DNA of 62,776 nt from contig JADLGX010000320.1 of assembly GCA_020849095.1 (NCBI GenBank), forward strand, positions 1-62,776, in the 5' to 3' direction. The position numbers and the translations under genes were made by a program. Positions within the stretch are counted from its first letter, which is position 1. Each line of letters starts with the position of its first letter. The stretch comes from Candidatus Eiseniibacteriota bacterium. GTDB lineage: Bacteria; Eisenbacteria; RBG-16-71-46. Below, piece after piece: positions 1,500 to 32,175 of the stretch. The notes under the pieces were generated by a model. The model searched no databases and was not told where the DNA came from. It saw only the letters and a list, made by a program, of their open reading frames with translations.

Positions 1500-1507
1500 T
1501 CGTTGGC

Positions 1508-13286: not shown

Positions 13287-14408
13287 TCACCCCGCCGCCG
13301 CCTTGATCCTCGCCACCTCGTGCACGAATCCAGCGACGTCTCGCGCGAAGTCAGGCGCGCCCACCCTGCCGACCACGACGACCCGGCTCGGCTCGTCCGC
13401 GCCCGGCTCGCGCATGTTGGCGCCACCGCGGAAGCGGCTCCAGAAGAGCTGCGATCCAATCCCCTTCTGTCCGCCACCGATTCGTCCCCGATGAACGAAG
13501 TAGACGTTGCCGGTGTGAGGGTCGCTCGCGAACGCCCCGCCAATCTTGCGGTCCAGGCCCTCGAACGGTGGGTTGACCTGAACGGTGATTTGCAGCGACT
13601 TCTCGGGGTCGGGCCGCGCGATGCCGAAGCAGTTCCAGTACCGGTTGTCGAGGTCCTGGAACAGCGCCCAGAGCTTCAGCGCCGGGCACCAGTGGATCGT
13701 GAAGGTGTCGTTGCCGCCATGGAAACCGATGCGCTGTCGTCGGCGTACTGTGGCAACTTCGAGCAGCTGCTTGCGGGCCGTCTTCATCGCGCGGGCGGCC
13801 GACTTCTTGTCCTCCACGAGGAAGAGCTCGGGCATGTCGGCGTCGCGCGCTGTCGTGCGCATGAACGGGGCGCCGAGCTCGAACAACTGGTCCCAGAGCT
13901 CGGCCCCGGAGTAGAAGGCGCGCGAGTAGTCTGCGAGCTCTTCGGCCGAAGGCACGTGCGCCTTCTCCTTTGCACGCGCCAGCAAAGCGTCGATCGAGAC
14001 TGCAAATGGATCGAGCGTAGCGCCCTCCCACAGGACCACCGCGTCGAGCGGCGCCATGAAACCTGGCGGCGTGAGCTGACCCGCCCCCAAGATGACTCGC
14101 ACGTCGGTGCCCTTCTGGAACCGAAAGACGTTGGCGCGGAAAGAACCGTCGGCAGCGGGGACCAGCCGCAGGCAGTCGTGCTCCTGGAGCCACGCGAGTG
14201 CCGCCGGCTCGGAGCGCATCCCGTCGAGCGCGACGTAGGCTAACCGAATCTTCGCTGCGCTACGCTCGAGGATTTGCCACAGCGGCCACTTCCCTCCACT
14301 TGAGGCGGCTGCCGGTGTTGCGAATGTCAACGCTTCGCACCAGCCGCAGGCGTCCTCGATCGCGGCCTGAAGCACGCTCGGTTCGCTCAGAACACGCGCA
14401 TCGGCCAC
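13287..14408 (-). CDS. Two-domain protein: degenerate PLD/NgoFVII-like N-domain plus unrecognised C-domain, 373 aa
   Basis: GTG start 2 nt after the helicase stop. The N-domain follows the PLD layout, but FRANVFRF...LGAGQLT replaces HxK...GSxNLT. The C-domain (RYWNCFG...ITVQVNPPFEGLDRKIGGAFASDPHTGNVYFVHRGRIGGGQKG) is not recognised. Confidence 0.6.
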   Translation of the reverse strand: MADARVLSEPSVLQAAIEDACGWCEALTFATPAAASSGGKWPLWQILERSAAKIRLAYVALDGMRSEPAALAWLQEHDCLRLVPAADGSFRANVFRFQKGTDVRVILGAGQLTPPGFMAPLDAVVLWEGATLDPFAVSIDALLARAKEKAHVPSAEELADYSRAFYSGAELWDQLFELGAPFMRTTARDADMPELFLVEDKKSAARAMKTARKQLLEVATVRRRQRIGFHGGNDTFTIHWCPALKLWALFQDLDNRYWNCFGIARPDPEKSLQITVQVNPPFEGLDRKIGGAFASDPHTGNVYFVHRGRIGGGQKGIGSQLFWSRFRGGANMREPGADEPSRVVVVGRVGAPDFARDVAGFVHEVARIKAAAG

Positions 14409-14410
14409 GA

Positions 14411-16765
14411 CTACAGGTCCATTCCTGTCCCCGGATTCTTCGGGGCGAAGTAGCGCTCGAACGTATCGAAGAACATGTCGGCCCGGACACGCCAGAAGTC
14501 GGCGCTGGCATTGGGCCCAGGCTTGACGCCGCGCTTGGCGGCATCTTCGAGCGCATCAATGGAGGGCGAGTACGAGCGTTCACGCGCACGGAAGTCCCGG
14601 TTGTGTCCAGCGCTTGGCATGTCTGCGTGCAGCATCTCGTGGAACATCAGGAACTCGACCACGAAGAGCGGGACGTCGGGCGAGTTGAGCACGCAGTTGA
14701 GCGTGATGCTCTTGTCGGAGTACCGGCAGAATCCCCAGAGGCGCGTGGAGACTCGGGTGGACCAGCGCAGGTCTCCGATGAGCGGCGAGCCGTTTGGGAA
14801 GTGCTTCTTCACGCCGAGCACTCCGTCCCGGAGGGCAGTCAGTGAGTGTCCGCGTTCACCCGAGGGCCATGGGTTCGGCGGCCCCTTCGGGACCACCTTC
14901 GCGACCTCGGGCACCACAGGCGGTTTTGGCGGGCTGAGGATGTCGTTCAGCTCGCGTGTCACGTCGTCCACGAAGGCGCGTTGATCGTCGCGGTACACAT
15001 TTCGGCAGGCCGGCTTCCCGTCCCAGATGTCTTGCAGGTGCTTCTGCTGCGCGAGAAGCGGGAGGTTGCCGTCGACCACTGCGCGCGCAATCGTGCGTGG
15101 GTCGAACGAGCTCTTCTCTTCGAAGGTGTAGTGATGGATCGAACACCCCTTGCGCGTCGCATCGAGCAGAGCCTTGATGTCGGCCCAGCGCGGCAGCGGG
15201 TCCGGCACGTCCGCGAAGTAGGTGCGGAGCAGATCTCGCGCCAGGTCCTCCGTCACCTCGCTGGGCACAGACTCCGGCGTCGGAAACGCAGCAAGGAGCG
15301 CTTTGAGCTGCTCGTGCTGATTGTCGAAGACCATGACGGTCCTCCGCTGCAGGTCGTCCTCGAATGCCTCCTCCCAGGCGTACCAACTGTGCGGCAGACA
15401 CTGGAACACGCCCACGAGCTGCCCACGGACGTTGCTCTGAAGCAGTCGGTACGCTTCACGGACAAGCTCGATCGGAATCGAAATCCGCTGCACGTCGGTC
15501 GGTGCCGCAGCCTCCCTCGGAACGTCCAGTGGCTCGGACAGAACGTACTCGGCGTCGAGGACGTTGAACTGCTCCCAAGTGTCGAGGAAGGTCACCAAGT
15601 AGGCGGTGTCGTTGCCGCCGGACTGCTTGCCACGTAGGGCGCGGCCAACCATCTGGGTCAGCAGGCTCTCCGAACGCGTCGGCCGCGCGATGAACACGGT
15701 GCGTGTGTGCGGAGCGTCGAAGCCCTCGGTGAGCATCTCGACGTTCACGAGGACGTCCGGCTTCCTCTGCTCCTGGTACCGCTGGATGACGGCCTGTGCG
15801 TCGTCGCGGCTGTAGGCGACGTAGTCCGCGTCGACGCCCTTCTTCTTGAACTCGCCCGCCAACGTTTGGGCATGGAGCGTGTCTGCCGCGAATACGATGG
15901 TTGGACCGTACGTTCCCCGCTGCTTCAGGTAATGATCGACGATTAGCCCGTTGCGAGATGCGTTTTTCGCAAGTCGCGCCAAGACGTGGGGCCCGAGCTC
16001 GCCGAACCGCTCGAGGTATTTGTAGTCGTCGGGGGTGAAGTCCTTCTCCAAGTTCACGTTCGTCTTGACGGTCTCGAAGCTCGGCGCAGCCAGAACGTCG
16101 CGGTCGGTGAGCTCTCGACGGGTGACCTGGTAGATGACGGAATGGTCGAAGACCGCGCTGAGACGTTTCTCGTCGTCCTCGTCTGCGCGCACAGGAGTTG
16201 CCGTCAGCCCGAGCAAGGGGCATCCCCACTTCTTCAGCCGTTTCAATAGCTCGAAAGACCGCGGTGCCGGCGCATGGTGGGCCTCGTCGAGGACGACGAA
16301 CAACCCGCCCGGCGAGCCGTCGTGTAGCTCCGCAATGAATCCCGCATTGGCGTCCAAGACAGCGCTCTGCATCGAAGAGAAGATCACTTCGTGGTCGGGG
16401 CTCACGTTGGACCACTTGGCGAACGCAGATGAGAGAGCGATGAGATTCAGTGCCTCCTTGCGCGGATGCGCGACGTTCGCAATTCGCGCGAAGGTCGAGA
16501 ACGCCTGGCGGAGAAGGCTGCGGCGATGCGCGAGCCACAGTACGCGCCCACCGGCCGCGATGTGGTGGGCCAAGAGCCAGTGCGCCGCGAGCAGGGTCTT
16601 GCCCCCTCCCGTGGGGACGACGACGAGGCCGGCCTTCTTGCCCGCGTCGACGAAGTGCGCCGTCAGCCGGTCGTGAGCTGCGGTCTGATGGTCGCGCAGG
16701 GTGACGGGGCTTGCCTGCGCAGTCAGCTTCAAGTGAACGTCGGGGGTCCAGGCGGTCGTGGCCAT
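14411..16765 (-). CDS. SF2 (ResIII/DEAH-type) helicase fused to C-terminal COG1451/DUF45 SprT-like HExxH metallopeptidase
   Basis: Helicase motifs VVVPTGGGKT, VVLDEAHH and QMVGRALRG. The C-terminus LWGFCRYSDKSITLNCVL...FLMFHEMLHAD...GHNRDF fits the WGxC / I-x-LN / HExxH / H-x-x-F signature. Start set at ATG 16763-16765; the track start 16834 is a TTG. Confidence 0.75.
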   Translation of the reverse strand: MATTAWTPDVHLKLTAQASPVTLRDHQTAAHDRLTAHFVDAGKKAGLVVVPTGGGKTLLAAHWLLAHHIAAGGRVLWLAHRRSLLRQAFSTFARIANVAHPRKEALNLIALSSAFAKWSNVSPDHEVIFSSMQSAVLDANAGFIAELHDGSPGGLFVVLDEAHHAPAPRSFELLKRLKKWGCPLLGLTATPVRADEDDEKRLSAVFDHSVIYQVTRRELTDRDVLAAPSFETVKTNVNLEKDFTPDDYKYLERFGELGPHVLARLAKNASRNGLIVDHYLKQRGTYGPTIVFAADTLHAQTLAGEFKKKGVDADYVAYSRDDAQAVIQRYQEQRKPDVLVNVEMLTEGFDAPHTRTVFIARPTRSESLLTQMVGRALRGKQSGGNDTAYLVTFLDTWEQFNVLDAEYVLSEPLDVPREAAAPTDVQRISIPIELVREAYRLLQSNVRGQLVGVFQCLPHSWYAWEEAFEDDLQRRTVMVFDNQHEQLKALLAAFPTPESVPSEVTEDLARDLLRTYFADVPDPLPRWADIKALLDATRKGCSIHHYTFEEKSSFDPRTIARAVVDGNLPLLAQQKHLQDIWDGKPACRNVYRDDQRAFVDDVTRELNDILSPPKPPVVPEVAKVVPKGPPNPWPSGERGHSLTALRDGVLGVKKHFPNGSPLIGDLRWSTRVSTRLWGFCRYSDKSITLNCVLNSPDVPLFVVEFLMFHEMLHADMPSAGHNRDFRARERSYSPSIDALEDAAKRGVKPGPNASADFWRVRADMFFDTFERYFAPKNPGTGMDL

Positions 16766-16779
16766 TTCGTAACGTGCTC

Positions 16780-16795
16780 TGCGAATGCCGTGCCA
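16780..16795 (-). promoter_or_regulatory. sigma54-type promoter candidate TGGCACG-GCAT-TCGCA
   Basis: Matches TGGCACG-N4-TTGCW at 7/7 and 4/5 with exact GG-N10-GC spacing. Predicted +1 near 16769, 4 nt before the helicase ATG at 16765. Confidence 0.5.
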
Positions 16796-16854
16796 CCACT
16801 TCGCCTCACGTCTCGGCGCGCAATGCCGGGACAAGCCGCCGCGGCCACACAGAA

Positions 16855-16864
16855 GGAACGTTCC
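16855..16864. promoter_or_regulatory. Perfect 10-bp palindrome GGAACGTTCC (possible activator site)
   Basis: Centred about 90 nt upstream of the predicted +1 of the 16780-16795 element. The GGAAC half-site also occurs in both elements flanking the activator gene. Confidence 0.35.
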
Positions 16865-16870
16865 CCCGGC

Positions 16871-16884
16871 AGAAGGAGCCTTCT
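16871..16884. promoter_or_regulatory. Palindrome AGAAGG-AG-CCTTCT (possible UAS)
   Basis: 6-bp arms. Same family as AGAAGA-GA-TCTTCT at 29499-29512. Centred about 108 nt upstream of the predicted +1. Confidence 0.4.
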
Positions 16885-16897
16885 TCTCGGGCGAACG

Positions 16898-17371
16898 CTA
16901 CCTATCCCACCCCGCTTCACGGCGGTACTTCCTGAGGAGGGCGCCGAGCCGCTTGAGGGTGGCGCTTGCGTCCTTCGGCAACGCGGTCTGATGGACCGCC
17001 AGGTTGCGAAGGCCAACCACCGCGCCCAGGACGGACCTTCGAGAGCGCGCATCCTCGACGCAGGCGCGGACGCTAGGGTCGAGCACCAGGCCTTCGGCAG
17101 CGTCCCCGATAGACTGTAGTAGTTGACCTGCGGTCGCCCTCCGAAGCGAGACGGTCCTCTTGCCGACCTGCGGCAGCAAGTCCGCTGGATCGCGGCGCGC
17201 GGCGAGCGCGACCGCGATCAACAGCTCCCGCAGAAAGTCGTCGAGCTTGGACCCAACCACGGTGATGCCTCCAATCAGGTGGCTCTTCGCCGTCGTGGGC
17301 GCGCGGGCGTCTTCCTTATCGATGCGCTCGAGAAGCGCAGCCGAAGTCTCGTCAAGCGGGTGCCTAGCCAT
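16898..17371 (-). CDS. Minimal HEPN-like (DUF4145-like) helical protein, 157 aa
   Basis: The ATG at 17369-17371 lies 1 nt after the kinase stop. Predicted helical. An R-x4-H motif, RNLAVH (nt 16991-17008), sits near the C-terminus, as in HEPN RNases. Confidence 0.5.
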   Translation of the reverse strand: MARHPLDETSAALLERIDKEDARAPTTAKSHLIGGITVVGSKLDDFLRELLIAVALAARRDPADLLPQVGKRTVSLRRATAGQLLQSIGDAAEGLVLDPSVRACVEDARSRRSVLGAVVGLRNLAVHQTALPKDASATLKRLGALLRKYRREAGWDR

Positions 17372-17372
17372 T

Positions 17373-19106
17373 CTACCCCCTCCCCAACGCCGCCGCGAAG
17401 TCGGAGCACGTCTCGAAGCGCTCCGAGGGAGCATCGCGAAGGGCCCGAGCGACCGCTGTATTCTGACGATTCGAAAGGCGCCCGAACTCACGCGGCTTGT
17501 AACGTCGTTTGAACACGAGCCCCTCCAGCATAGAGCAGAAAACGAGCGCGAGCGCGTACTGGTCCGTCTTCCGTTGCGCTTTCTCTCCGCGGAGCTGCTC
17601 CGGCGCCGCGTACGCCCGCGTGTACGCGACCGGAGCGGTGGCAAAGACCGTGGTGTTTCCGACCGTGTTCTTGCCGGTGCGTCCCTGGACCGCAATGCCG
17701 AAGTCGCCCAGGCGCACCTCCCAGGGGCTAGTGGTCGTCTTCACGAGCACGTTACCCGGTTTCACATCTTGGTGGAGAACGCCCTTCTTGTGCGCGTAGT
17801 CGAGACCGGCCGCCGCCTGACGAACGACCTCGATGGCGACGGCGAGCGCAAGCGAGTCGCCGCTTTCGATGATTCGTTCCAGCGATGTGCCGCCGTGGTC
17901 CATCACCAGGTACGTCCCGACGGTAGGATCGCAACCGTAGTCGATGTAGGTGCAGATGTTCTGGTGACGCAGGTCCCACGCGATGCCCATCTCCTCGCGG
18001 AGACGGGCCCGGGCTGGGTCCGACGAGGTCTTCAGCACGACCAACTTGCGCGGGTGCTCGAGCCGCATCGCTTCCCAGGCAACGCCGAAACCGCCTTCGC
18101 CGAGGCGACGGCGCAGCTCGTAGCGGCCGCTGACAATCCGCCTAGTTCTCTGGGAGGGCGGCAGCTCCGAGTCTTCGGTCTTGCGTCGCCTTTCCGGGGC
18201 GGGTGTCTTGCGCTCTTTTTCCTCCTCCTCCTCGCCCTCGGCCTCGCTGGTCGCTTCACCCACGAGTTCGGGTATCACGCGAGCCAACTTGGTGTTCCCG
18301 TTTGCTGCTTCCAGCCGGCGGACCACTTCTTTAGGCTCCACGTCGGCAACGTCGGCAACCCACCGTAGAAGTGACGGTGCGCGCATGGCGGTCGCGACCC
18401 TGAGCTCCGAGAGCATGGCGCGCGACGGTCCAAGCGCGCTGATCGGTTGCCCGGGCAGGAGGGTACTGAGCAGCGTCCTCCCGTTCGCCGCGCGAGCCTT
18501 GGCCGACAAGCTTCTGGCGGACAGGTCAACGCGACGAGCAAGCCAATTCAGAAGCGGCGGAGCGCGGCGGAGCGCTGCGGCAGGAATCGCACCCACGAGC
18601 TCGAAGACGGCAAAATCCCTCTCCGCATCCAGGAACCGCCGCTGGCTCCCGGGACGAACGGCATCATCGTGCTCTTCCTGTTCGTGGTCGCCGTTCTCGT
18701 CGTCCGCTTCCTCTAGCTCTTCCTGTTCATCGTCCTCGTCGTCGTTGTCGTCGTTGTCGTCGCTCTCGTCCTCCCCTTCCACGAGCTCTTGGAAGACGTT
18801 CGCAAGGAGGCTCTTGCCGTGCTCCTTGTTGAGTCGCGCTCGCACGGTGCGGAGTGAAAGGCCCGTTGCAGCGACAAGTTCCTGCTCGAGGTTCGCGTCG
18901 CGTGCGGCAGCTACAGTGATCCCCTCGAGCCTTGCGGAATCCTCGGGCCACTCATCCGAAAAGATGCGGCCTGCGAGCGTGTTGCCGTGAGCTCGAGTGA
19001 CGCGTGCCGTCACCTGGCGCGCCGAAAGCCCGGTGATTGCGACGAGCAGGCGCAGGTCGCGCTCGCCGAGCATGGAGACGCGGACGTCAGCGAGGCGCTC
19101 GGTCAT
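17373..19106 (-). CDS. Hanks-type Ser/Thr protein kinase with repeat-containing N-terminal region and acidic tract, 577 aa
   Basis: Kinase motifs LGEGGFG, VVLK, HQDVKPGNVL, GDFG and APE in the C-half. The N-half has four ~29-aa HTH/SAP-like repeats and a D/E-rich tract (nt 18663-18779). Confidence 0.85.
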   Translation of the reverse strand: MTERLADVRVSMLGERDLRLLVAITGLSARQVTARVTRAHGNTLAGRIFSDEWPEDSARLEGITVAAARDANLEQELVAATGLSLRTVRARLNKEHGKSLLANVFQELVEGEDESDDNDDNDDEDDEQEELEEADDENGDHEQEEHDDAVRPGSQRRFLDAERDFAVFELVGAIPAAALRRAPPLLNWLARRVDLSARSLSAKARAANGRTLLSTLLPGQPISALGPSRAMLSELRVATAMRAPSLLRWVADVADVEPKEVVRRLEAANGNTKLARVIPELVGEATSEAEGEEEEEKERKTPAPERRRKTEDSELPPSQRTRRIVSGRYELRRRLGEGGFGVAWEAMRLEHPRKLVVLKTSSDPARARLREEMGIAWDLRHQNICTYIDYGCDPTVGTYLVMDHGGTSLERIIESGDSLALAVAIEVVRQAAAGLDYAHKKGVLHQDVKPGNVLVKTTTSPWEVRLGDFGIAVQGRTGKNTVGNTTVFATAPVAYTRAYAAPEQLRGEKAQRKTDQYALALVFCSMLEGLVFKRRYKPREFGRLSNRQNTAVARALRDAPSERFETCSDFAAALGRG

Positions 19107-19171
19107 CGCGAAACTCTATCGCAGTGCGCGACGGTAGGGGGCGTGAAGCGCGGCCCCAAGGAGGTCCGGGG

Positions 19172-20065
19172 CTAACTGCACTTGGCAGCTCGGCCCGGTA
19201 CGGCATGGCGGTCGACGAGCTTGAATGTCGCGGTGCCCGCGTCAAAGTCAGATCGCACTCGGTGCCAGATGTCCGGGTCGAGGAGCGACACGTCGGTCTG
19301 CTGCCCCGGCGGCTTCTCGTCTAATCCCCCATCGACACGGACGCCGCCAAGGTCCGTCACGATGTAGCGAGCGTGAAATTGATCGCCGTCCGGAAGTTCG
19401 TTCCAGCGAAACAGCTCAACCTTGATTCCCCTCGGGATGAGTCGCGCAAGCTGGCTGTCGCACGAACTGCGGAAGAAGCGCTCGTCTGCCCTCGCGGTAA
19501 GGTGGACTTCGCATCGCCGCAGCCCACGTCCGTCCCGCGCGGCTTCGGTCAGAAGCGCCTCAAAGACCTTTCGGAAGCGCGGTGTCTCCGGGCCGAAATA
19601 CGGGTCGACCAGCTGAAGCTCGCGCGAGCACCTGAGGAGAGGCGACAAGAGCCCCGCAAGCGCGCGTCCCGTCTGGGCCACTCTGCACTCTCGAGCGACT
19701 CTCCAAGGTTCGGCGTCGGGGTCTAGGTCATCACGATTGACCACCTTGGGATGCGCTCTCGGGTTATCGAGGGCCACAATCGCCTTGAACAGCTCGGCCT
19801 CGCGCTCGGTTTCGACCAGCCAATCCCCCGCTGAGAAGTCGCGGGCTACGTCGCACACGGCCAGTGCTGTTGCCCTTCGGAGCCGATCCACAATGCGGAG
19901 CCTCTGCACAGGCTTCCAAGGCGCGGCCTCGAGGACGAGGTCCTGCCACTTCCTCGGACATCTTGCGATGAAGCGCCCAGTGCGGGGACCACACTGATCC
20001 ACGATTCGGCCGAAGTTGGCCTCATCTGCGATCGCAGATGGATCAACGGCAAAAACCTCGAACAT
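19172..20065 (-). CDS. Partner protein of the ATPase, 297 aa, with a C-terminal HxR(x)4D motif (PLD-like?)
   Basis: The ATG at 20063-20065 shares one nt with the ATPase stop (TGATG). C-terminal LVDPYF ... FHARYIVTDLGGVRVDGGLD resembles an HKD motif with K replaced by R. Confidence 0.6.
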   Translation of the reverse strand: MFEVFAVDPSAIADEANFGRIVDQCGPRTGRFIARCPRKWQDLVLEAAPWKPVQRLRIVDRLRRATALAVCDVARDFSAGDWLVETEREAELFKAIVALDNPRAHPKVVNRDDLDPDAEPWRVARECRVAQTGRALAGLLSPLLRCSRELQLVDPYFGPETPRFRKVFEALLTEAARDGRGLRRCEVHLTARADERFFRSSCDSQLARLIPRGIKVELFRWNELPDGDQFHARYIVTDLGGVRVDGGLDEKPPGQQTDVSLLDPDIWHRVRSDFDAGTATFKLVDRHAVPGRAAKCS

Positions 20066-21723
20066 CAAAAGAGCTCCCGCGACCGCTCCTCGAAGAAGCC
20101 TTTCGGCCATTGGTCAATGAACTCGCCCTGATCGTCTACACGGAGCTGATGCACGATCGTACCACCCAGGCCGCGCTCCAAATAGACGACGGCAAGCTGA
20201 GCTGGGCGCAGGCCGGGGTGGCCTTCAGGTAGCTCGCCTCCTGCGGTTTCGCGGATTCGCCGGAGAAGTCGGAGGATGAGGTGCTCGCTGTGGGTCTCAA
20301 CGATGAAGCGGTGCGCCTTGCCCGGTTGAATTCCTGCAACCAGGAGATCCGCAATGTCCGCCTGAAGGCGAGGGTGAACGTGGACCTCGGGCTGCTCGAT
20401 CGTGATGGTCTGCTCGTCTGATGCAAGCACTTGCACGACGAACGGCAGGAGCTGACTGATCCCGAAACCCACGTCCGGCAGTGCAACCGAGGTTGCGGCC
20501 GATCGCTTCTTGTCTTGAAGCCGCACTTCGAACAGATCATTGGAGCGACTACCCACCGGTTCGATGGCAATGCGATATCCAACATCAAGGCGAGTGAGCC
20601 AGTCGTTCGTCTCTTCGACCAGCTTCGGCCGACGAAAGAGAAGGTCCGGAAGCAGGTTCCCCGAGTAGCCAACATCAGGCGGCGTCGTCCCGGTGAAGAT
20701 GTACAGGCGCTGGGGAGCTTTCCTATAGGGCCCCAGCGGAAAGAGACGCTCGAGCGCCATCTCCAACGACACCCCCGCTTCCATCAATGTGTCCGCAGCT
20801 TCGATGAAGTGCGTCCGTAGCGGCAATCTGGATCGCCGGTGGTACGTCGCGGCGGTCCGCTCGGGGTATTCCCCCCCCGCATCTGGACTCACGGCAAACG
20901 GGATGAATCCGTCCAACGCGACAACTCCGCCGTGCGATGCGGATCGCCTCCGCGCTGCGTACGCGGCGAGGGAGAACTCAGAGTTGTAGAACCTGATCGC
21001 TGCGTCAACGGATTCGACCGTGAACTCCTCGTCCGGAAACAGCCGCCCTTGCCGATCCGGGTGTTGTCGCGCGATCTCTTCTCGCATCGCTGCGAGTGAC
21101 TCCAGAATCTCCGTGCGCAGTTGAAGGGTTCGACTGTATTCAGCCTCCCAGTAGTGGTCGTCGGCTACGACCTCCGTACACACGGCACCGCGCGGTCTTC
21201 CTGGGCCCTTCCTATCCCGTCGCATGCCGTACGGTCCAAAGGGTGAGAAACGGCGACTGTGCTGTAGCTGTGCACCGTGCAGATCCTGCGGTTCGAACTG
21301 GGCGACTGATTCAAGTCGTTGCCCATCAAAGACACGAAAGCCCGCTAGAGCGACGTCACCTGCCCCTTTTTGCCGGAACGATACCTCCAGACCAATGGCC
21401 CGCCCGGTCTCACCTTCGTCGCGTGTGCGGAGCATCCTTGACGAGCCTCGCAAGTCGAGCCGAAGAGACAATGTCCGCTCGGCATCGTGGTCGTACAAGA
21501 GCTCGTGAAAGCTCCCAAGATCCACCAACCCGCCCTCCGCGCGCGGCAGGAGCAGCGCTCCGTGTTCACGGCTGAAGCGTGTTTGCTTCAGAAGGTTGAG
21601 CGCATTCAAGATCGAGCTCTTCCCCGCGCTGTTCTCGCCGTAGATGAGGGTGATGGGAGCGAAGTCCAAGCGCACCCTGTTGCCGAAGGCCTTGAAGTTC
21701 TCCAGCTCAATTGCGTGAATCAT
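20065..21723 (-). CDS. AAA_15/ABC-type ATPase with DUF3696-like C-terminus, 552 aa
   Basis: N-terminus MIHAIELENFKAFG...GENSAGKSS (Walker A). Walker B/D-loop region ITIEQPEVHVHP, then ETHSEHL. C-terminal tail EFIDQWPKGFFEE. GGAGG lies 6 nt before the ATG at 21721-21723. Confidence 0.75.
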   Translation of the reverse strand: MIHAIELENFKAFGNRVRLDFAPITLIYGENSAGKSSILNALNLLKQTRFSREHGALLLPRAEGGLVDLGSFHELLYDHDAERTLSLRLDLRGSSRMLRTRDEGETGRAIGLEVSFRQKGAGDVALAGFRVFDGQRLESVAQFEPQDLHGAQLQHSRRFSPFGPYGMRRDRKGPGRPRGAVCTEVVADDHYWEAEYSRTLQLRTEILESLAAMREEIARQHPDRQGRLFPDEEFTVESVDAAIRFYNSEFSLAAYAARRRSASHGGVVALDGFIPFAVSPDAGGEYPERTAATYHRRSRLPLRTHFIEAADTLMEAGVSLEMALERLFPLGPYRKAPQRLYIFTGTTPPDVGYSGNLLPDLLFRRPKLVEETNDWLTRLDVGYRIAIEPVGSRSNDLFEVRLQDKKRSAATSVALPDVGFGISQLLPFVVQVLASDEQTITIEQPEVHVHPRLQADIADLLVAGIQPGKAHRFIVETHSEHLILRLLRRIRETAGGELPEGHPGLRPAQLAVVYLERGLGGTIVHQLRVDDQGEFIDQWPKGFFEERSRELF

Positions 21724-21799
21724 GGTTGACCTCCGAGCCTCCTGTGCAAGCGTCGGGCCATGCGAGACAAGCACCAGTCCGATCGATGTTTGGCGGTCG

Positions 21800-21838
21800 G
21801 ATGCCCTTCAAGTTCTCCAGCTCGATGCGTGTGATCAT
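21800..21838 (-). pseudogene. Vestigial 5' end of an AAA ATPase gene ([13 protein letters not shown]...) coupled to the hsdS stop
   Basis: The ATG overlaps the hsdS stop (ATGA). 39 nt are about 77% identical to the start of the functional ATPase gene 115 nt downstream. The frame then degenerates. Confidence 0.45.
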
Positions 21839-24512: not shown

Positions 24513-27500
24513 GCTTGCTTGCTCTCAGGGGGTGGGCTCGACGGGTCTGCCTTGCGCGGTTGGAACGCCTCGAGGATTCCGAGGAGCTCGTCGAGCTGAC
24601 CCTTCTCGGTGAACAGGCCATCGACACCGTTGGCGTGAAGGTCGGTGAAGGGAGGGTCGTAGAGGCGCTCGAGCTCGATGCCGCCGTTCTGTGCGATGTG
24701 ATTCTTCAGTAGCTGCAGAAACCTGAGCTGCTGGGCCGAAAGGTGCAGGTGCTTGTGGACGAAGCCAGTGAACGCGGCATCGACCGCTTCGGGATCGAGG
24801 CCCACGAGACCGCGAAGCGCGTCAGTCAGCGATTGCCTCGTCTCCGGCTGGATCAGGTGCTTGAGGTTCGCCTTGTCGTCGACCTGGAGCACCAGCTTCG
24901 CGAGTGCGTCCAGGTCCTCGTCCCGGACTGTCTTGCCGGCGCGAATGCGCTGGAGGGTGGGGTCATTCATGAAGTGCTCGCGCAGGACTCTTTCCACGCG
25001 ATGCCGGTACTCGATCAGATCCAGGCCATCGAGCGTGGGCGTGCGATCGTAGCTGTGCACCACTTGCTCTGCGACGTCGTACACCTTGGGTACGAGGCGA
25101 GAGGGATTCGTCTGCGCCTGGTACTTCATGATGCCGCGGAGCTCGGTTCGGATCTCTTCGAGCTTGGCGGCGGTCACGGTGGCCCAGAGCTCCTTGCTCT
25201 GGACCGCGCGAATGGCCTCGGCCTTCGCCTTGACCGGGTTCTGGTTCTTCATGAGCAGCGCGACCTCGGCTTCGACGGCAGCCTTCAGATCCGCCACCCT
25301 GGGCGACCCCTTGATCACCGCCTCCTCGAGGCGCGTCATGAGCAGATCGAACCGGTAGGCATCCTCGTCACCTCGGATGTTGCGCCACTGCATGAGCGGC
25401 GCGGCGATGGATAGCAAGTCTGCCTTGGTCGCTGCCGCGAACTGGGCGACGGTGTCCCGGTTGGACAGGAGCTCGAGCTCCCGCCGCCGGTCGCGCACGT
25501 CGATGCTCCTCGAGTCCATCGCGTCGCGGACGTCCCTGACCAGGAGGTCCACGGTTGACTGGAAGTCAGGCTCGCTCATGGCGTCGAGCGCCGCCTGAGC
25601 GACAGCCATGCGCGCTTCGAACAAGTGTTGAAGCAGGGACTTCTGGGGAGCCGGCTGCTTCTCCTGGTACTCCTCTTCGAAGAACCAGAAGTTCTTGCCG
25701 TGGTCGAAGATGAGGAACTCGGACTTGTCGTTGCCGGGACCAAACAGGTCTCGACATAGCCGGGTCCCGCGCCCAATCATCTGCCAGAACTTCGCCGGCG
25801 TCTTGACCGCCTTTGCGAAGACGAGGTTCACGACCTCGGGGACGTCGATGCCCGTGTCGAGCATGTCGACAGAGATGGCGATGACGGGCTCCGAGTCCTT
25901 GGTCTTGAAGTCGTCGATGAGCTGATCGGCCCGCGGTTCCTGGTGGTCGATGACTCGGCAGAAAGCGCCGCCGTACTGCGGGTACATCTCCGCGAAGAGC
26001 TCGGCGAGGTGGACTGCGTGCAAGTGACTCTTCGCGAAGACGATCGTCTTGCCGACGCGGCTGCCCGTGGCGTCGCGGATGCCCTCTTGCATCAAGCTCC
26101 GGAGGACGACACGGCTCGTGTCCTTGTTGAAGACATCGCGATCGAGTTGTGCGGGCGTGAATTCAACGCTGTCTGGCTGGTCTTCCTGCGCCTCCAGCTC
26201 CGTCTGCTGGTCCGCCGACATCTGCGAGTACCTGAACCCCTCCTCGCGGAACCGCGTCTGAAACTCGCGCACCCGGAACGGCACGAGGTACGGAGGAATC
26301 GAGCTCACCGCCTCCTCGTAGGTGAAGTTCGCTGTCGGGTCGTTGTGCTCGCACCCAAACAGCTTGAAGGTGTCTCGGTCGGCGTACCTGAGCGGCGTAG
26401 CCGTCAGGCCCACCTGGAACGCATCGAAGTACATCACCAGCTCGCGGTACTTCTTGTAGATGCTCCGGTGCGACTCGTCGAAGATGACTAGGTCGAAGAA
26501 CCCGACGTCGAACGTCTCGTAGCACTTCAGCATCGCTGGGTAAGTCGCGAGGTAGATGCGCTTGTCTCGGTCGGACGAGGTCGTGCTGTCGACTACCACT
26601 CGAGGCTCGTCCGGGAGGAACTCCTTGAAGACGTTGTTGGCTTGCTTGCGAAGCTCGCGCCGGTCGCAGAGGAAGAGAATGCGTTTGGCCCAACCCGCAC
26701 GCATGAGCAGATCGCAGAGCGACACGGCGACGCGAGTCTTGCCAGTGCCGGTTGCCTGGACCAGCAGCGCACGGCGAAACTTCTGCTCGAAGCGCTCGTT
26801 CACGCGCTTCATCGCCTCGAGCTGGTACATGCGCTCGGCGATGGTGATGTCCGGGGCCATGGTGGCCAGCGGTTTCTTGTTCTTTCGCTGGTGCAGGAGG
26901 TATTCGAGACTGTCTTTCGAGTAGAAGCCGTAGACCTTTCGCGGGGTGAACCCCTGCGAGTCGTCCCATACATAGATGTCGATGCCGTTGCTGTAGAAGA
27001 TGACCGGCCGCTGTCCGGTTTCTTTCTCGAGGCAAGTGGCGTAGATGCGTGCTTGTTCCTGACCGATGCGGGCGTCCTTGGCGGTCTTCTTCGCCTCGAC
27101 CACGGCCAACGGCTTGCCGTCATCGCCGTAGAGCACGTAGTCGGCATAACCTTCTCGCGACTCGGTGGGCATCGTCGAGAGCTGGATCTCTTGACCCACC
27201 TGATCGTTGCTCTTCCCGCCAGCGCCGACGTTCCAGCCCGCCTCGACCAGTGCTTGGTCGATGAGGCGGCGGCGCGTTGCCTCCTCGCTCAGATGGAGGA
27301 CGTTCGCCGCTTTCTGTCCCTCGCTGCGGAGCGCCTCGAGCTGTTCCTGGGTGTGTGCGACGAAATTCTCGGCCGCCTCGCGCTTCCGCCGTTCGTCTTC
27401 GAGGTCGGCGAGCACCTTCTGGAGTTGCGCGTCCTGCTGGGCCAGCTTCTCCAGGGCGTCCTTCTTCGCCTTCTGGAGCGCCGCGCTGTCGGTCGCTGCC

Positions 27501-27940
27501 GTCGCCGGAGGGTCTGAGTAAGCCGGGCACTGAGCGCGGTTGCCCTGATCGATGCGGAGGAAGACCCACTGCGCGATGTCGAAGGCGTCACGAAGCGCCT
27601 GGAGCGCGGCCTGCGCGCTCGGAGGGTCGTGGTGAGCAGCCTTGTTGCCTGCTTTGCGGATTGTGTGGAGCTTGCCGAGCACCACATCGGGGACGGCGGT
27701 CCGAAACGGCGTCTCGTTCAGGAGATCGAAGACGCTATCGGTGTACGGCCGTGGCAGTCGGTAGGTCTCGTAGATGATGGCGACGACGGTCTCCATGAAG
27801 GAGCGCAGCTTCACGAGCGCGCTTGCGGGGTCCGGACGCGCGTAGACCTCGGCGAACCCACCGAGGTCGGCGAGCTCGGGATGCCTCGGTCGCAGGAACT
27901 CGAAGTTCCTCGACTTCATCAGCGCGTCCTCGGGGAGCAT
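24509..27940 (-). CDS. hsdR: Type I restriction enzyme R subunit with N-terminal DUF4145/HEPN-like module and EcoEI-type C-terminal domain
   Basis: N-terminal NFEFL...[10 protein letters not shown], helicase motifs VQATGTGKT and DESH, long helical C-domain. The alternative start ATG 27919 (MKSRNFEFL) has a GAGGA 7 nt upstream. Confidence 0.85.
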
Positions 27941-27972
27941 GCTCGCCCCAGCAGCACGTTCCGTTCCATCAT
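27938..27972 (-). promoter_or_regulatory. 35-nt element ATGATGGAACGGAACGTGCTGCTGGGGCGAGCATG (sigma54-like TGGAAC-N5-GTGC) ending at the hsdR ATG
   Basis: GG-N10-GC spacing. It overlaps the activator's TGA stop. 27/35 identical, ungapped, to the element at 29563-29597 on the other strand. Confidence 0.45.
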
Positions 27973-29465
27973 TCCTTCACCCCGTACCTCGTGAGCCAGC
28001 CTTTGAGCGTTTGGTAGCTGGCGAGGCCGACCAACGATGCCGCCAGGGTCTTGTTGCCCTGGGCCTCCTGCATGGCGCGAGACAGGTAGTGGCGCGCCAC
28101 GTCCGCCATCAAGTCCGACAGGTTGAAACCGCCGCCCAAGGGGCGGCCGAGGACTTCGGGAGTCAACGACCTTGGCGCGGCGAGTAGCGCATCGCGCGCC
28201 TCGCCCTCATCGATGACCGCGCCCCTCGACCAGATGAACGCCCGCCGAAGGGTGGACTCGAGCTCCCGCACGTTGCCAGGCCAATCGTACCGGAGAAGAA
28301 GATTTCTTGCGCCGACAGAAACCTTCTTCTGGACGGCGCCGGGCCGGCTGGCCATCTCCGCGTTGAGCTTGTCGAGCAGCCTATCGAGCAGAAAACTAAC
28401 GTCGCCCTCGCGCTCCCTGAGCGGCGGCGTCTTGAGGACCAACACCGCCAGCCGAAAGTAGAGGTCTTCTCGGAATCTTCCTTCGCGCACCTCTTGGAGG
28501 AGGTTGCGGTTGGTCGCGGCGATGACACGCACGTCTACGGGCACGTCGGCCCGGCCGCCAATGGGCCGTACTCTTCGCTGCTGCAGAGCTCTCAGCAGCT
28601 TGGCCTGGTGCTCGACCGCGAGCTCACCGACTTCGTCCAGGAAGAGCGAGCCGCCGTCCGCTTGCTCGAAGAACCCCTTGTGGTCGCGGTCCGCGCCGGT
28701 GAAGGCGCCCCGGGTGTGCCCGAAGAACTGCGACTCGAAGAGCTCCTTTGGGATAGCGCCGCAGTTCACTTCGACGAAGGGCTTGCCCTTCCGCGGACTT
28801 TCCCCGTGAATGGCCTCGGCGAGCAACTGCTTGCCAGTGCCGGATTCACCTTCGATGAAGACGGACTCGGAGAACGGGGCGGCTTGCCGGGCACGGCGGA
28901 CCAAGCGCTTCATCACCTCGCTTCGGTGCAGAATATCACCGAATTTTGGCTCTTCCGGGCGAACACCGTCAGCAAGCTTCGCCAGGTCCGCGCTGGTCTG
29001 TTGGACGGCGGCCGGGATGAACTCCGCAGCCAGCTCGAACGGAACGTTGACCGTCGCGACGCCCTTCTCCCTCGAGGACTCTATGAGCTCCGCCCCGAAC
29101 CGGGTCTTGGCGACGATGATCCAGATCGCCGCCATCGCGGGGGTGCCGGGGCTGAGGTGGAAAGTGAGCCTGGTCTTGGCGCCGTGCTTCTCGAGCGTCC
29201 AGGCGACAGTGCTGCTCACCGCGCGGTAGATGTCGGCGTGGTCAGTGGGAGACGACAGCACATGTTGCTGAACGACCACTTCCGCGTCGGTCTGCTTCGC
29301 AACCCAACGCACGTACGGGTTGATCTGCTCTTTGGGGAAGTTGTTCAGCAGAACGACCTGGTCGAACTTGCGCGCCGCCAGGGCCTCCGCGATGGGGCCC
29401 GCGCCGCCACCCTCAGCGGCCTTGAGATCGGTCAGGCCGATCCACGCCAGGAGCACACGAGCCAT
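27969..29465 (-). CDS. CARF-like (RtcR-type) sensor domain fused to a sigma54-dependent AAA+ activator and Fis-type HTH, 498 aa
   Basis: GESGTGKQ Walker A, GAFTGA loop (HTRGAFTGA), RFREDLYFRL, C-terminal HTH. The N-domain MARVLLAWIGLTD...TFHLSPGTPAMAAIWIIV resembles the RtcR CARF pattern. Start set at ATG 29463-29465; the 151-aa upstream extension in the track was rejected. Confidence 0.75.
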   Translation of the reverse strand: MARVLLAWIGLTDLKAAEGGGAGPIAEALAARKFDQVVLLNNFPKEQINPYVRWVAKQTDAEVVVQQHVLSSPTDHADIYRAVSSTVAWTLEKHGAKTRLTFHLSPGTPAMAAIWIIVAKTRFGAELIESSREKGVATVNVPFELAAEFIPAAVQQTSADLAKLADGVRPEEPKFGDILHRSEVMKRLVRRARQAAPFSESVFIEGESGTGKQLLAEAIHGESPRKGKPFVEVNCGAIPKELFESQFFGHTRGAFTGADRDHKGFFEQADGGSLFLDEVGELAVEHQAKLLRALQQRRVRPIGGRADVPVDVRVIAATNRNLLQEVREGRFREDLYFRLAVLVLKTPPLREREGDVSFLLDRLLDKLNAEMASRPGAVQKKVSVGARNLLLRYDWPGNVRELESTLRRAFIWSRGAVIDEGEARDALLAAPRSLTPEVLGRPLGGGFNLSDLMADVARHYLSRAMQEAQGNKTLAASLVGLASYQTLKGWLTRYGVKE

Positions 29466-29498
29466 CGGCCCTGGGAGGGTAACAACTCCTCTGGCGCC

Positions 29499-29512
29499 AG
29501 AAGAGATCTTCT
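29499..29512. promoter_or_regulatory. Palindrome AGAAGA-GA-TCTTCT (possible UAS) in the divergent intergenic region
   Basis: 6-bp arms, extended imperfectly to CCAGAAGAGATCTTCTTGG. Centred about 88 nt upstream of the predicted +1 of the 29563-29597 element. Confidence 0.4.
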
Positions 29513-29562
29513 TGGGCGGGGGGATTCGACCCATGGAAGAACCGAATGATCCGGCGACTGCG

Positions 29563-29597
29563 ATGATGGAACGGTTCGTGAAGAAGGGACGTGCATG
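29563..29597 (+). promoter_or_regulatory. 35-nt element ATGATGGAACGGTTCGTGAAGAAGGGACGTGCATG ending at the ATG of the coiled-coil nuclease gene
   Basis: Twin of 27938-27972. -24-like TGGAAC; the -12 position reads GTGA (GA instead of the canonical GC). Same 28-nt distance from TGG to ATG. Confidence 0.4.
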
Positions 29598-31298
29598 ACC
29601 ACGCAAGCTCCCCTCACGGTTCTCGTCGGCGTCGAAGCCGACGTCGTCGAAGCGCATATCCGAGACCGCCGCACCGACGCGGTGTCCGTTTTTGAGCCAC
29701 TGAACGAAGCCCAGCGGGTGGGTCTTGTCACCGACGCCTGGACCGTCGGCCTTCGCGCTCTCATGAACGCCTACAAGCAAGCCGAGGAAGCTCGCTTGCA
29801 GGACATCGGTCGCACGCTGAGCGAGGACCTGGAGCGGCAGCTCGCCGCGTACGTCGAGCGGCAGCAGGCGACGTTCGTCCAGGTGCTGGCGCGGTACTTC
29901 GACCCCCGCGACGGGCAAGTTGTCGCTCGGCTCGAGGGATTCCTCCGCGACGGTGGCGAGCTCGCACAGACCATGGACCAGTTCCTGGCGCCAGGGCGGG
30001 GCGCTCTGGCACAGACGCTGGCCCGCGAGCTCGGAGAGAACAGCTTGCTGCTCAAGCGCCTGAGCCCGACGGACAGCGAGGGAGTGATCTTTTTGCTGGA
30101 GTCCAAGCTGCGCGAGGCGCTGGCTTCAAGCCAGGTGGAGGTTGCCCGTGCGCTCGATCCGAGCGCCGAAGACGGTGCCGTCGCCAGGTTCCTGCGCGCT
30201 CTCCGCCAGGAGCTCGAGAAGGCCGACAGCGACCGGAGCAAGCAGCTCGCGTTGGCCACCAAGGCATTGGACGCCAACGACGAGACGTCGCTCTTGAGCC
30301 GAATGATGCGCGAGGTTTCCGACGCCCGAACCGCGTTCGTCACTTCGATGAACCCGGACCTGCCCGACTCCCCGATGGCGGTGCTCAAGACGGCGCTCTC
30401 GACCCTGCTCGAGCAGCACGTCCAATCGCAGCAGGAAGCCATGGAGCGCATGCAGGAGCGCCAGCAGAAGTTCGAGGCGGACGTCCGCGAGGCACTCGTC
30501 CGTATCGAAGAGCGCAAGCGCGGCGAGCTCAAGTCACCTCGAGGCGGCATTGCCTTCGAGGACGCGGTAACCCGCTTCGTCCAGCGGTCCGTTCAAGGCG
30601 CGCCCGTCACCGTTGACGCGACCGGCAATACCGTTGGCGCCAAGGCGGGCTGCAAGGTCGGCGACCAGGTGCTCCGCTTCACGGCCGAGAGCGCGTACTC
30701 CGGGTGCGCGCTCGTGGTAGAGGCCAAACGAGAGGCCGGGTACACGGTGACCCAGGCGCTGGCGGAGCTCGAGCTGGCTCGCGGTAACCGCTCGGCGGGA
30801 ACGGGTCTGTTCGTAATGTCCAAGAGCCACGCGCCGAAGGGGTTCCCGAACTTCGCGCGTTACGGCAGCGACATCCTCGTCGTCTGGGACGACGAGGACG
30901 AAGGGACTGATCCCTACCTTCACGCAGCAGTCGTCTTGGGCCTCGCACTGGCGAGCCAGCAGAGGCGTAGTGAGGACGAGGGCGACATCAGCGCCCTCGC
31001 CGACATCGAACATCGCATCCAGAAAGAGGTCGACCGTCTGGGCAGAATGCGGGGTCTGGCCGAGTCCATCCAGGGCGACGCCGAGAAGCTGGCTGACGAA
31101 ATCCGGAAGGGTGGCAAAGGCCTGGACCTGCTGCTCCGCAAAGCGAAGTCCACGCTGAAGGCGCTGAACGTGGAGTTGACCGAAGCCGAGGAAGCAAGGG
31201 CCGAGCCGGTCGGGCTGGCGGCGGGGTCGCTGGTGGAGGCGAGGGGGGCGCTGGCTGGTGGCGACGACGGCACGGGCGACGCAGACGCGCGACACTGA
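29595..31298 (+). CDS. Coiled-coil protein with C-terminal PD-(D/E)XK-like domain (RmuC/DUF2130-like), 567 aa
   Basis: About 330 aa of heptad-like Q/E/A/L/R-rich sequence, then SPRGGIAFEDAV...KVGDQVLRF...CALVVEAKRE (D ... E-x-K) ...GLFVMSK. Confidence 0.65.
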   Translation: MTTQAPLTVLVGVEADVVEAHIRDRRTDAVSVFEPLNEAQRVGLVTDAWTVGLRALMNAYKQAEEARLQDIGRTLSEDLERQLAAYVERQQATFVQVLARYFDPRDGQVVARLEGFLRDGGELAQTMDQFLAPGRGALAQTLARELGENSLLLKRLSPTDSEGVIFLLESKLREALASSQVEVARALDPSAEDGAVARFLRALRQELEKADSDRSKQLALATKALDANDETSLLSRMMREVSDARTAFVTSMNPDLPDSPMAVLKTALSTLLEQHVQSQQEAMERMQERQQKFEADVREALVRIEERKRGELKSPRGGIAFEDAVTRFVQRSVQGAPVTVDATGNTVGAKAGCKVGDQVLRFTAESAYSGCALVVEAKREAGYTVTQALAELELARGNRSAGTGLFVMSKSHAPKGFPNFARYGSDILVVWDDEDEGTDPYLHAAVVLGLALASQQRRSEDEGDISALADIEHRIQKEVDRLGRMRGLAESIQGDAEKLADEIRKGGKGLDLLLRKAKSTLKALNVELTEAEEARAEPVGLAAGSLVEARGALAGGDDGTGDADARH

Positions 31299-31314
31299 CA
31301 CCCAGGGATTCGGC

Positions 31315-32175
31315 GTGAACACGAAGCAACACTTCCTCCCGGCGGGCTTTCTCAAGAACTTCTCAGCTAGTCCATCGGCAGGCCGCGAGGCTCCCGTCTG
31401 GGCGTTCGACGGGCAGCGGTCCTTCCAGACCGCAGTGAAGAACGTCTGCGTTGAGGGCGACTTCTACACCTTCGACCGCGAGCAGGAGTTCAACGTGCAC
31501 GGGGAGCTGGAGACCGGGCTGTTCGACGTGCTGCCAAAGCTACTCGACGGTGATCGGACAGACCGTGTGCTCGTTTCGATGCTGTTCCACGCGTGTTACT
31601 TGCACATTCGGGGACGCGAGTTCGAGAACGCGTCGGGCGTGGCCCGATTGAACGCAATCCAGACGCACGGAGTGACGTTCATCTGCCGGCACGTTCTTCG
31701 GATGAGCCTGGAGGAGCAGCCGCTCGGCCGAGCGACTGCGCGTCTCATGGTCAGTACCGCTCTCACGGACTTCCACTTCGAAGTCGTTCGAGCCGACACA
31801 TCCTCCGGTGACACGGACTTGTACTGCTCCGATAACCCGGTGGCGATCTTCACACGGGACGGGAGGCCGGATCTCTTGGTGTTGCCGCTAACCGCGACCC
31901 AGCTCTTCGTGGCAGCACGCGCATCTGCGTTCGAGACCCGTGGGAACAAGTACGACGAGACCGACGCCGCGTGGGCGAACAGCGCCCAGTGCTACTTCAC
32001 TCACCGCCAAGTGTTCTCGCGTCACGAGATGCCCGAACAGGACAGGATGCAAGCCGCGGCGCTGATGCGGAGAAGACCGAAGACCAACTCTGCGCTCGAA
32101 CCGGATTCGCTTACGGTCACGCCGTCCAGCATCCCGAAGCCCCTTCCCTCTTTTCTGGTAGCGCGGGTCGAATGA
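31315..32175 (+). CDS. DUF4238-like protein, 286 aa
   Basis: The N-terminal KQHFLPAGFLKNFS matches the H-[YF]-[LIV]-P-x-x-[YF]-L-x-x-F hallmark of DUF4238, as I recall it. GTG 31315 lies 6 nt after AGGGA and 16 nt after the upstream stop; the track start 31258 overlaps the upstream gene. Confidence 0.55.
   Translation: MNTKQHFLPAGFLKNFSASPSAGREAPVWAFDGQRSFQTAVKNVCVEGDFYTFDREQEFNVHGELETGLFDVLPKLLDGDRTDRVLVSMLFHACYLHIRGREFENASGVARLNAIQTHGVTFICRHVLRMSLEEQPLGRATARLMVSTALTDFHFEVVRADTSSGDTDLYCSDNPVAIFTRDGRPDLLVLPLTATQLFVAARASAFETRGNKYDETDAAWANSAQCYFTHRQVFSRHEMPEQDRMQAAALMRRRPKTNSALEPDSLTVTPSSIPKPLPSFLVARVE

Follow-up and report, generated by a model that had tools for sequence, protein, structure and literature searches.

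An RtcR-like CARF activator probably heads an inducible, multi-promoter defense array in "Candidatus Eisenbacteria"

RtcR-like proteins with a CARF-AAA-HTH architecture were reported by Makarova et al. 2014 (PMC4012209) to be "often associated with restriction-modification systems" and were predicted to be sigma54 activators of downstream genes, answering phage-induced ligands. Bell et al. 2024 (eLife, PMC11090510, Fig. 8) placed RtcR homologues in superoperons in which a type I restriction-modification (R-M) system directly follows the CARF gene, and which also hold a Ser/Thr kinase, helicase/PLD genes, Druantia III at a later position, and CoCoNuTs (McrBC-like coiled-coil nuclease tandems). 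Induction by cyclic-phosphate RNA ends was proposed in that work, and "internal RtcR-independent promoters" were expected (PMC11090510). Here, we describe one contig of a "Candidatus Eisenbacteria" metagenome-assembled genome (62.8 kb; the whole stretch is referred to as the window), in which an RtcR-like CARF activator gene (27969–29465, minus strand) probably heads an inducible defense array served by several promoters.

The activator of the window has the same architecture, the same link to R-M, and the same predicted role as the family described in 2014, and nothing separates the two. As in the published superoperons, hsdRMS stands directly after the CARF gene, and a kinase, a helicase, and Druantia III are co-directional with it. 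In contrast to those superoperons, no McrB/McrC-like (CoCoNuT) protein was found in the open reading frames (ORFs) of positions 1–9700 or elsewhere in the window scans. Whereas RtcR-independent internal promoters had been expected, the internal sigma54 promoter of the window has the dyads of the activator's own upstream region. An earlier note on this DNA had claimed that no defense island organized this way was known; its central idea is right, yet it had already been published as a computational prediction in 2014 and again in 2024. Promoters, binding sites, and the geometry of start sites are absent from the published accounts of the RtcR-like family that we found. What is new here are concrete cis-elements (the promoters, the dyads arranged in tandem, the start codons at +1 to +3, and what is likely an enhancer within the activator gene), together with evidence, drawn from predicted elements, of at least one internal promoter with the activator's own dyads.

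RtcR of Escherichia coli and Salmonella has the CARF-AAA+-HTH architecture and the divergent sigma54 target promoter that are predicted for the window activator. It controls rtcBA RNA repair, whereas the window activator lies beside defense genes and has a second predicted promoter directly after its stop codon. The CARF domain of RtcR is a negative regulatory and sensor domain, and its binding of 5′ tRNA halves ending in a 2′,3′-cyclic phosphate leads to oligomerization (PMC7790460). A CARF sensor is also coupled to the transcription of immunity genes in the Csa3-type CARF-HTH regulators of CRISPR-Cas loci (PMC4012209); unlike the window activator, these bind DNA directly as winged HTH factors, lack an AAA+ domain, and are sigma54-independent.

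The activator and its CARF domain

The 498-residue product of the activator gene matches Sigma54_activat (PF00158) at 2.1e-67 as well as AAA_lid_14 in Pfam, and the motifs GESGTGKQ, GAFTGA, LFLDEVGE, and FREDLYFRL are all present in its translation. At the C terminus, HTH_8 gives a weak match (E 0.0038; 17.4 bits, below the Pfam cutoff of 22), and the alignment to the CARF_AAA_HTH model of PADLOC extends to the very C-terminal end. Judged by these matches, the protein is an intact sigma54 enhancer-binding protein, in agreement with the earlier note, which had read an intact core from GESGTGKQ, the GAFTGA loop, and a C-terminal HTH. PADLOC model PDLC01995 (RtcR_PspF2--CARF_AAA_HTH) aligns with residues 3–497 over its positions 2–481 of 481, with an E value of 1.7e-187 and 622 bits.

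The best NCBIfam match of the activator is RtcR itself (NF038308), as would be expected if the protein were a genuine RtcR in charge of an RNA-repair operon at another place in the genome. This alternative is disfavored, and we give it almost no weight. The NCBIfam score of 315.2 bits lies under the equivalog cutoff of 650, the RtcR model of PADLOC scores the protein at 181 bits versus 622 for RtcR_PspF2, and the conserved neighbors are R-M and defense genes. Furthermore, no RtcA or RtcB domain was found in the ~35 large window ORFs scanned, a set that does not include every small ORF; the absence of both genes and the likeness to RtcR had been pointed out before. Because of the subthreshold score and the lack of rtcA and rtcB in the scanned ORFs, we classify the activator by its profile matches as RtcR-like, yet not RtcR proper, and as a full-length member of the defense-associated branch RtcR_PspF2.

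The N-terminal domain (residues ~1–145; 29031–29465, minus strand) gave zero Pfam or NCBIfam matches when searched alone, permissive thresholds included, and a profile built from 23 such domains matched nothing among PDB sequences. The PADLOC models detected CARF4 at 5e-15 and Csx1/Csm6 at 1.7e-5. An AlphaFold2 model of the domain (mean predicted local distance difference test score, pLDDT, of 84) was compared with the PDB using Foldseek, and the top 25 matches were all CARF proteins (Csm6, Can2, Cam1, Cad1, and Card1). The CARF pocket is made of the loops following strands 1 and 4 (Makarova et al. 2014, PMC4012209); in the activator family, the corresponding loops, WIGxxD and FHLSPGTPAM, are invariant in 23 diverse homologues. 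Thus, the CARF-like domain suggested earlier is upheld by the hidden Markov models and by the predicted fold, which identify the N-domain as a CARF domain.

Reading of the sequences revealed that the basic residue after strand 4, typical of nucleotide-binding CARFs, is missing in the activator family, and the same feature was remarked for RtcR by Makarova et al. 2014 (PMC4012209). This absence is compatible with a sensor controlled mainly by a protein, either the 567-residue product of the divergent gene or an R-M subunit, with no small nucleotide needed. A precedent is RtcR itself, whose CARF domain is bound by RtcAB, which are needed for activation (PMC9650030). We nevertheless consider gating by a partner protein rather unlikely, as the divergent partner varies by lineage (567-aa protein, ARPP-1, or none) and the invariance of the pocket loops across the 23 members fits a common small ligand better.

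Sigma54 promoters and tandem dyads

The N-domain family is present in 438 species-representative genomes from Myxococcota, Desulfobacterota, Gammaproteobacteria, Latescibacterota, Acidobacteriota, and Planctomycetota. From these genomes, 80 loci (L001–L080) were fetched and served for all neighborhood counts; the neighbors in ~15 GC-rich loci were identified by tblastn with the window proteins. All three sigma54-like elements proposed by the earlier note are present where it had placed them, and a comparison with related loci revealed that all three are conserved.

The best conserved of the predicted targets is hsdR. Its promoter (TGGAACGGAACGTGCT, 27953–27968, minus strand) abuts the activator stop codon, carries GG (−24) and GC (−12) elements spaced by 10 nt, and is conserved across loci. 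When the 100 nt after the stop codon were searched in the 68 loci with a complete activator gene, a sigma54 consensus with at most two mismatches was found in 41, compared with 0.8% of random windows, and 29 of the 68 had a site with at most one mismatch (0.36% of random windows). The majority of loci have the motif immediately behind the stop codon (TGA-TGGAACG..., TAA-TGGCACG...). The position of the start codon is equally constrained. In 21 of 21 loci with HsdR of the window type, the first start codon past the predicted +1 is in frame with the N terminus MKSxNFEF; an ATG lies at +1 to +3 in 20 of these loci, and in L068 a GTG at about +3 would serve as the hsdR start. The extension between the start codon and MKSxNFEF is variable, with 4–8 codons in 20 loci. 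As predicted from these alignments, near-leaderless geometry is a conserved property of the hsdR promoter. Shine-Dalgarno (SD)-like G-rich runs (GGGG, AGGGG, AGGAG) lie 6–10 nt 5′ of the ATGs at +3, both in the window (27941–27952 and 29583–29594) and in L001–L023 and L079.

The divergent promoter, TGGAACG-N4-GTGAA (TGGAACGGTTCGTGAA, 29567–29582, plus strand), has a noncanonical GA at −12, as do those of L022, L025, L028, and L070. The form TGG(C/A)ACG-N4-(G/T)TGAA is kept in ~12 related loci, where the site mostly starts 108–113 nt from the activator ATG and the ATG of the partner gene is found at +3/+4 in nearly all cases. Gammaproteobacterial loci have a canonical divergent site ~163 nt from the activator ATG. 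Overall, a divergent site with at most two mismatches is present in 25 of 78 loci.

The third promoter is internal to the array and precedes the helicase gene. TGGCACG-N4-TCGCA (TGGCACGGCATTCGCA, 16780–16795, minus strand) has one mismatch to the consensus, with GG at −24, GC at −12, and 10-nt spacing. Helicase homologues often share a contig with the activator, and we compared the region in contigs L081–L084, of which three are distinct (L084 is a duplicate of L083). Their gene order is activator, hsdRMS, (ATPase pair), (kinase), and helicase, with the kinase in the same position in L082 and L083. The promoter is kept as TGGCACG-N4-xCGCA in L081 and L083 and is weaker in L082 (TGGCATG). Counted from the predicted starts in the window, the ATG at 16765 is at about +5, and those at 27940 and 29595 are both at about +3. 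The near-leaderless geometry that had been ascribed to all three genes thus stands for hsdR and the 567-aa gene; for the helicase, it is not conserved among L081–L084.

The sigma54 consensus is not enriched in the window as a whole, with 10 sites at up to two mismatches against 10.2 expected and two sites at up to one mismatch against 0.76 expected; the promoters therefore rest on cross-locus conservation. A count at chance level, together with SD-like sequences before the ATGs that are compatible with longer transcripts, is what chance motifs would give if the array were constitutive from sigma70-type promoters and the target of the activator were unlinked. We disfavor this explanation as very improbable in view of the 75-fold sigma54 enrichment right after the stop codon across phyla, the conservation of divergent sites at a fixed distance, and dyads 100-fold above expectation. 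A combined terminator and sigma70 scan of 12.9–32.3 kb stayed at chance level and was uninformative; no convincing terminator within the array was seen in it.

A fourth sigma54-like site (TGGCCCGACGCTTGCA, 21745–21760, minus strand, one mismatch), located 21 nt ahead of the ATPase start within the 111 nt that separate hsdS from the AAA_15 ATPase gene, was rejected because it was not found upstream of ATPase homologues in other loci. In the same gap, 21795–21834 (minus strand) echoes the ATPase gene at its 5′ end (ATCACACGCATCGAGCTGGAGAACTTGAAGGGC versus ATGATTCACGCAATTGAGCTGGAGAACTTCAAGGCC) and resembles what duplication or recombination of the start of that gene would leave behind.

In the PspF/pspA and NtrC/glnAp2 systems, tandem dyads about two helical turns apart lie 80–110 bp upstream of the sigma54 promoter, and enhancer sites of this type overlap the activator's own divergent promoter, which would permit autoregulation. 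The tandem dyads, their distance to the promoter, and this overlap are common to these systems and the window. PspF has no sensor domain and NtrC has a receiver domain, whereas the sensor of the window activator is CARF and one of its candidate enhancers is intragenic.

The dyad AGAAG-N4-CTTCT occurs in exact form only twice in the 62.8-kb window, versus 0.02 expected, at the positions of the two palindromes recognized in the earlier note (16871–16884 and 29499–29512). With at most one mismatch, there are eight dyads versus 1.36 expected, three of them inside the activator gene. The distance from dyad center to predicted +1 is 108.5 nt for the helicase and 87.5 nt for the divergent promoter, matching the spacings of 109 and 88 nt given before. 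A degenerate second dyad begins 6 nt beyond each exact one, at a center-to-center distance of 20 bp. Before the helicase, these are the perfect AGAAGGCTCCTTCT (16871–16884) and GGAACGTTCCTTCT (16851–16864); between the activator and 567-aa genes, the perfect dyad at 29499–29512, a predicted distal activator site, is accompanied by AGAGGAGTTGTTAC (29479–29492, minus strand). The tandem 20-bp layout before the helicase is repeated in L081, L082, and L083, with a full AGAAG-N4-CTTCT dyad in L081 and L083 and a degenerate one in L082, in flanking sequence that has diverged around both promoter and dyads. Distances from dyad to +1 of 87.5, 96.5–98.5, and 107–108.5 nt indicate that the phasing is partly conserved. 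The argument that the two spacings in the window differ by two helical turns roughly holds, and fails in L081, where the distance is 93.5 nt.

The upstream dyad at 29499–29512 is located at −46 from the activator ATG and has the same place in L001, L002, L003, L005, and L085. Its degenerate companion overlaps a −10-like box, TACCCT (29476–29481, minus strand), 10 nt before the activator ATG in the region 29466–29492. A TAnnnT box 6–10 nt before this ATG, accompanied by repeated TCTTGT/ACAAGA half-sites, is found in most loci; the family half-sites are usually arranged as ACAAGA-N2-TCTTGT and overlap the box. At least two TCTT(G/C)T or A(G/C)AAGA half-sites are present in the 80 nt before the activator in 41% of loci, versus 1.4% of random windows. 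We read this site as a probable activator-binding sequence that would also serve as operator of the sigma70-type promoter of the activator gene, whose mRNA is probably autoregulated and leaderless.

Two one-mismatch dyads inside the activator gene (28294–28330; nucleotides 1136–1172 of the coding sequence) form a candidate intragenic enhancer. They recur at the same coding position in L001, L002, L003, L007, L010, and L023 and are written in rare codons, CTT, TCT, and GCA among others. In 15 GC-rich orthologues, they coincide with the highest peak of A or T at third codon positions (0.44; mean 0.17, next peak 0.29). A sliding measure of synonymous-codon identity over 15 orthologous activator genes did not single them out. 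The recurrence in six relatives and the peak of A/T-ending codons point to selection at the DNA level ~330 bp upstream of the hsdR promoter. Further one-mismatch dyads are found at 28457–28470 (in the conserved REDLYF codons of the activator), 16378–16391 (in the helicase gene), and 19474–19487 (in the 312-aa gene).

These sites also bear on the reach of the activator. It could be a local regulator of its two flanking promoters (hsdRMS and the 567-aa gene) only, the helicase promoter being nonfunctional or belonging to another enhancer-binding protein. Cross-phyla conservation is indeed limited to the flanking promoters, the helicase promoter was observed in just four contigs, which are closely related and include a duplicate pair, and the start-codon geometry of the helicase is not conserved. 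In opposition to this, the exact dyad on the activator side recurs once in 62.8 kb, 108 nt upstream of the helicase promoter, three distinct relatives retain the tandem 20-bp spacing despite their diverged surroundings, and the scan of window ORFs turned up no other enhancer-binding protein. We therefore regard a purely local role as unlikely.

The defense array and its relatives

The activator stands at the head of a co-directional minus-strand array of 26 kb (29465 down to 3502), in the order activator, hsdR-M-S, AAA_15 ATPase and partner, Ser/Thr kinase, 157-aa ORF, helicase and partner, and Druantia III. The hsdR gene (24509–27940) starts with ATG 27940 at the predicted +3, and its product has DUF4145, HSDR_N, ResIII, and EcoEI_R_C domains in Pfam; DUF4145 occupies residues 34–116 at the N terminus, ahead of HSDR_N. 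It is followed by hsdM (23010–24512; N6_Mtase, 1e-61) and hsdS (21835–23013; Methylase_S, 3e-15). The AAA_15/AAA_21 ATPase (20065–21723; Pfam and PADLOC) has its true start at ATG 21723, preceded by GGAGG, and its 312-aa partner (19172–20110), covered by the Pfam/PADLOC scans, recurs beside the ATPase. Next come a Ser/Thr kinase (17373–19106; Pkinase, 9e-32) that resembles PD-T4-6/mad6 in PADLOC, the 157-aa ORF (16898–17371), the helicase (14411–16765; ResIII 3e-19, Helicase_C), and its 373-aa partner (13287–14408). The last genes encode DruH (9650–13033; PADLOC, 7.9e-76) and DruE (3502–9735; DruE3, E 0, 2128 bits), so that the window holds the DruH and DruE pair that defines Druantia type III.

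Two labels used earlier for the helicase pair were not confirmed. A peptidase part of the helicase corresponds only to a weak YgjP-like C terminus, whose match of 21.9 bits is below the cutoff of 26, and the 373-aa protein, which had been called PLD-like, has no match in Pfam, NCBIfam, PADLOC, or PDB sequences. Behind the helicase, a partner of the 373-aa type is found only in L081; a different 315-aa gene takes its place in L083, and L082 ends at the helicase.

Divergent from the activator, gene 29595–31298 (plus strand) encodes a 567-aa helical protein with a PD-(D/E)xK-like domain. No family match was obtained in Pfam, NCBIfam, PADLOC, or PDB sequences. Residues D357, E376, and K378 are invariant, and the structural model, of moderate quality (pLDDT 71), has long helices on either side of a beta-rich domain. 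The Foldseek matches of this model are individually weak (E 0.005–0.1), and almost all of them are PD-(D/E)xK restriction-endonuclease folds. The description as a coiled-coil nuclease is, on this predicted fold, plausible but unproven. It is followed by a DUF4238 protein (31258–32175, plus strand; PF14022, 2.7e-13), a lineage-specific passenger. The earlier note had treated the two as a pair; the DUF4238 gene was found behind the 567-aa gene only in L085 and L086, the closest relatives, and neither the DUF4238 protein nor the 373-aa protein occurs in any of the 80 loci.

The activator is directly followed by homologues of hsdR in 33 of the 80 loci, of hsdM in 34, and of hsdS in 25. The earlier note had included hsdRMS only as a possible target, and this unit turned out to be the best conserved one (33–34 of 80 loci). 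HsdR proteins marked by the conserved MKSxNFEF start accompany the activator across several phyla. The ATPase recurs in 23 of 80 loci and its 312-aa partner in 16; in Latescibacterota, two or three tandem ATPase-partner pairs directly follow the activator. Cargo in other lineages includes a DUF4007/SspB-like protein with a type IIG/DrmMI-like methyltransferase, tandem ATPase pairs, and Druantia III. As these neighborhoods hold R-M and other defense cargo, the activator family is a defense-linked regulator, with type I R-M as its commonest target.

In 13 of 80 loci, the gene divergent from the activator encodes the 567-aa protein. In Gammaproteobacteria (L013, L015, L019, L024, L027, L035, and L066), the divergent sigma54 promoter precedes a gene with an ARPP-1 domain (PF20208, 3e-96). 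We considered the 567-aa protein as the counterpart of gammaproteobacterial ARPP-1 and rejected it, as the two have no similarity; there is therefore no common divergent partner. DruH-DruE follows the divergent ARPP-1 gene in L024 and L027, and Druantia III is thus wired to the activator family in a second, different way.

Beyond the island, the window encodes a DUF932 protein (36954–38030, plus strand), a subtilase of the Peptidase_S8 family (54842–57184, plus strand), and a trypsin-like protease (57807–60761, minus strand); most of the large ORFs of 38–54 kb have no family match.

A possible immune regulon

The analysis directly supports the domain identities, the conservation of the three promoters and the dyads, and the fixed geometry of promoter to stop codon and promoter to ATG. 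If the activator works as RtcR does, its CARF domain would keep the AAA+ domain inactive in the resting state. A ligand derived from infection or damage, such as an RNA end with a 2′,3′-cyclic phosphate or a cyclic oligonucleotide, would bind CARF and free the protein to oligomerize on the tandem dyads (AGAAG-N4-CTTCT, 20 bp apart), where its ATPase would open sigma54 closed complexes at a minimum of three promoters. Of these, the one at the stop codon would serve hsdRMS and the divergent promoter would serve the 567-aa gene, whereas the promoter 12.7 kb downstream of the activator start would drive the helicase pair and possibly, via read-through, Druantia. Basal R-M expression would probably come from read-through of the activator's own sigma70-type transcript.

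We propose tentatively, at somewhat less than even odds, that the CARF-gated activator is in this way the master switch of an immune regulon comprising type I R-M, the helicase pair, the nuclease, and perhaps Druantia, acting through sigma54 promoters that share a dyad, with one intragenic enhancer and two near-leaderless mRNAs (starts at +1 to +3). The earlier note had tentatively put three units under this single activator; the promoters of all three are conserved and the dyad is common to two of them, but the pairing with DUF4238 in one unit is not general.

Several observations weigh against an activator-controlled array, beginning with the chance-level count of sigma54 sites in the window and the broken phasing in L081. 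The divergent promoter carries GA and not the canonical GC at −12; at least 12 loci share this variant. The 300 bp around the hsdR promoter contain no canonical dyad, and its enhancer would have to be the intragenic site (~330 bp) or one ~1.55 kb away. The SD-like G-runs between −12 and the ATG in many homologues suggest other transcripts starting further upstream, because leaderless transcripts would exclude them; the run before hsdR would matter only on read-through transcripts from the activator gene. A fully inducible type I R-M system would also risk self-restriction unless basal methylase is made. Finally, we infer every regulatory step by analogy for all members, including dyad binding, sigma54 dependence, the ligand, and inducibility, and in the literature found, neither a ligand nor DNA binding has been demonstrated for any member of this branch.

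That an infection signal switches restriction and other innate defenses in bacteria is still a largely untested idea. RtcR-like CARF activators, present in 438 species genomes, are its most widespread candidates, and in the literature found, the published case consists of gene neighborhoods. The mapped cis-elements make the published hypothesis experimentally addressable. They also raise the questions of how methylation of the chromosome is maintained if hsdRMS is inducible and whether the sigma54 promoters of this family give leaderless mRNAs. If the proposed regulon is correct, restriction in these bacteria would be signal-induced and not constitutive, and the RtcR homologue would control the internal promoters of the superoperons, which Bell et al. 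2024 had assumed to be independent of it.

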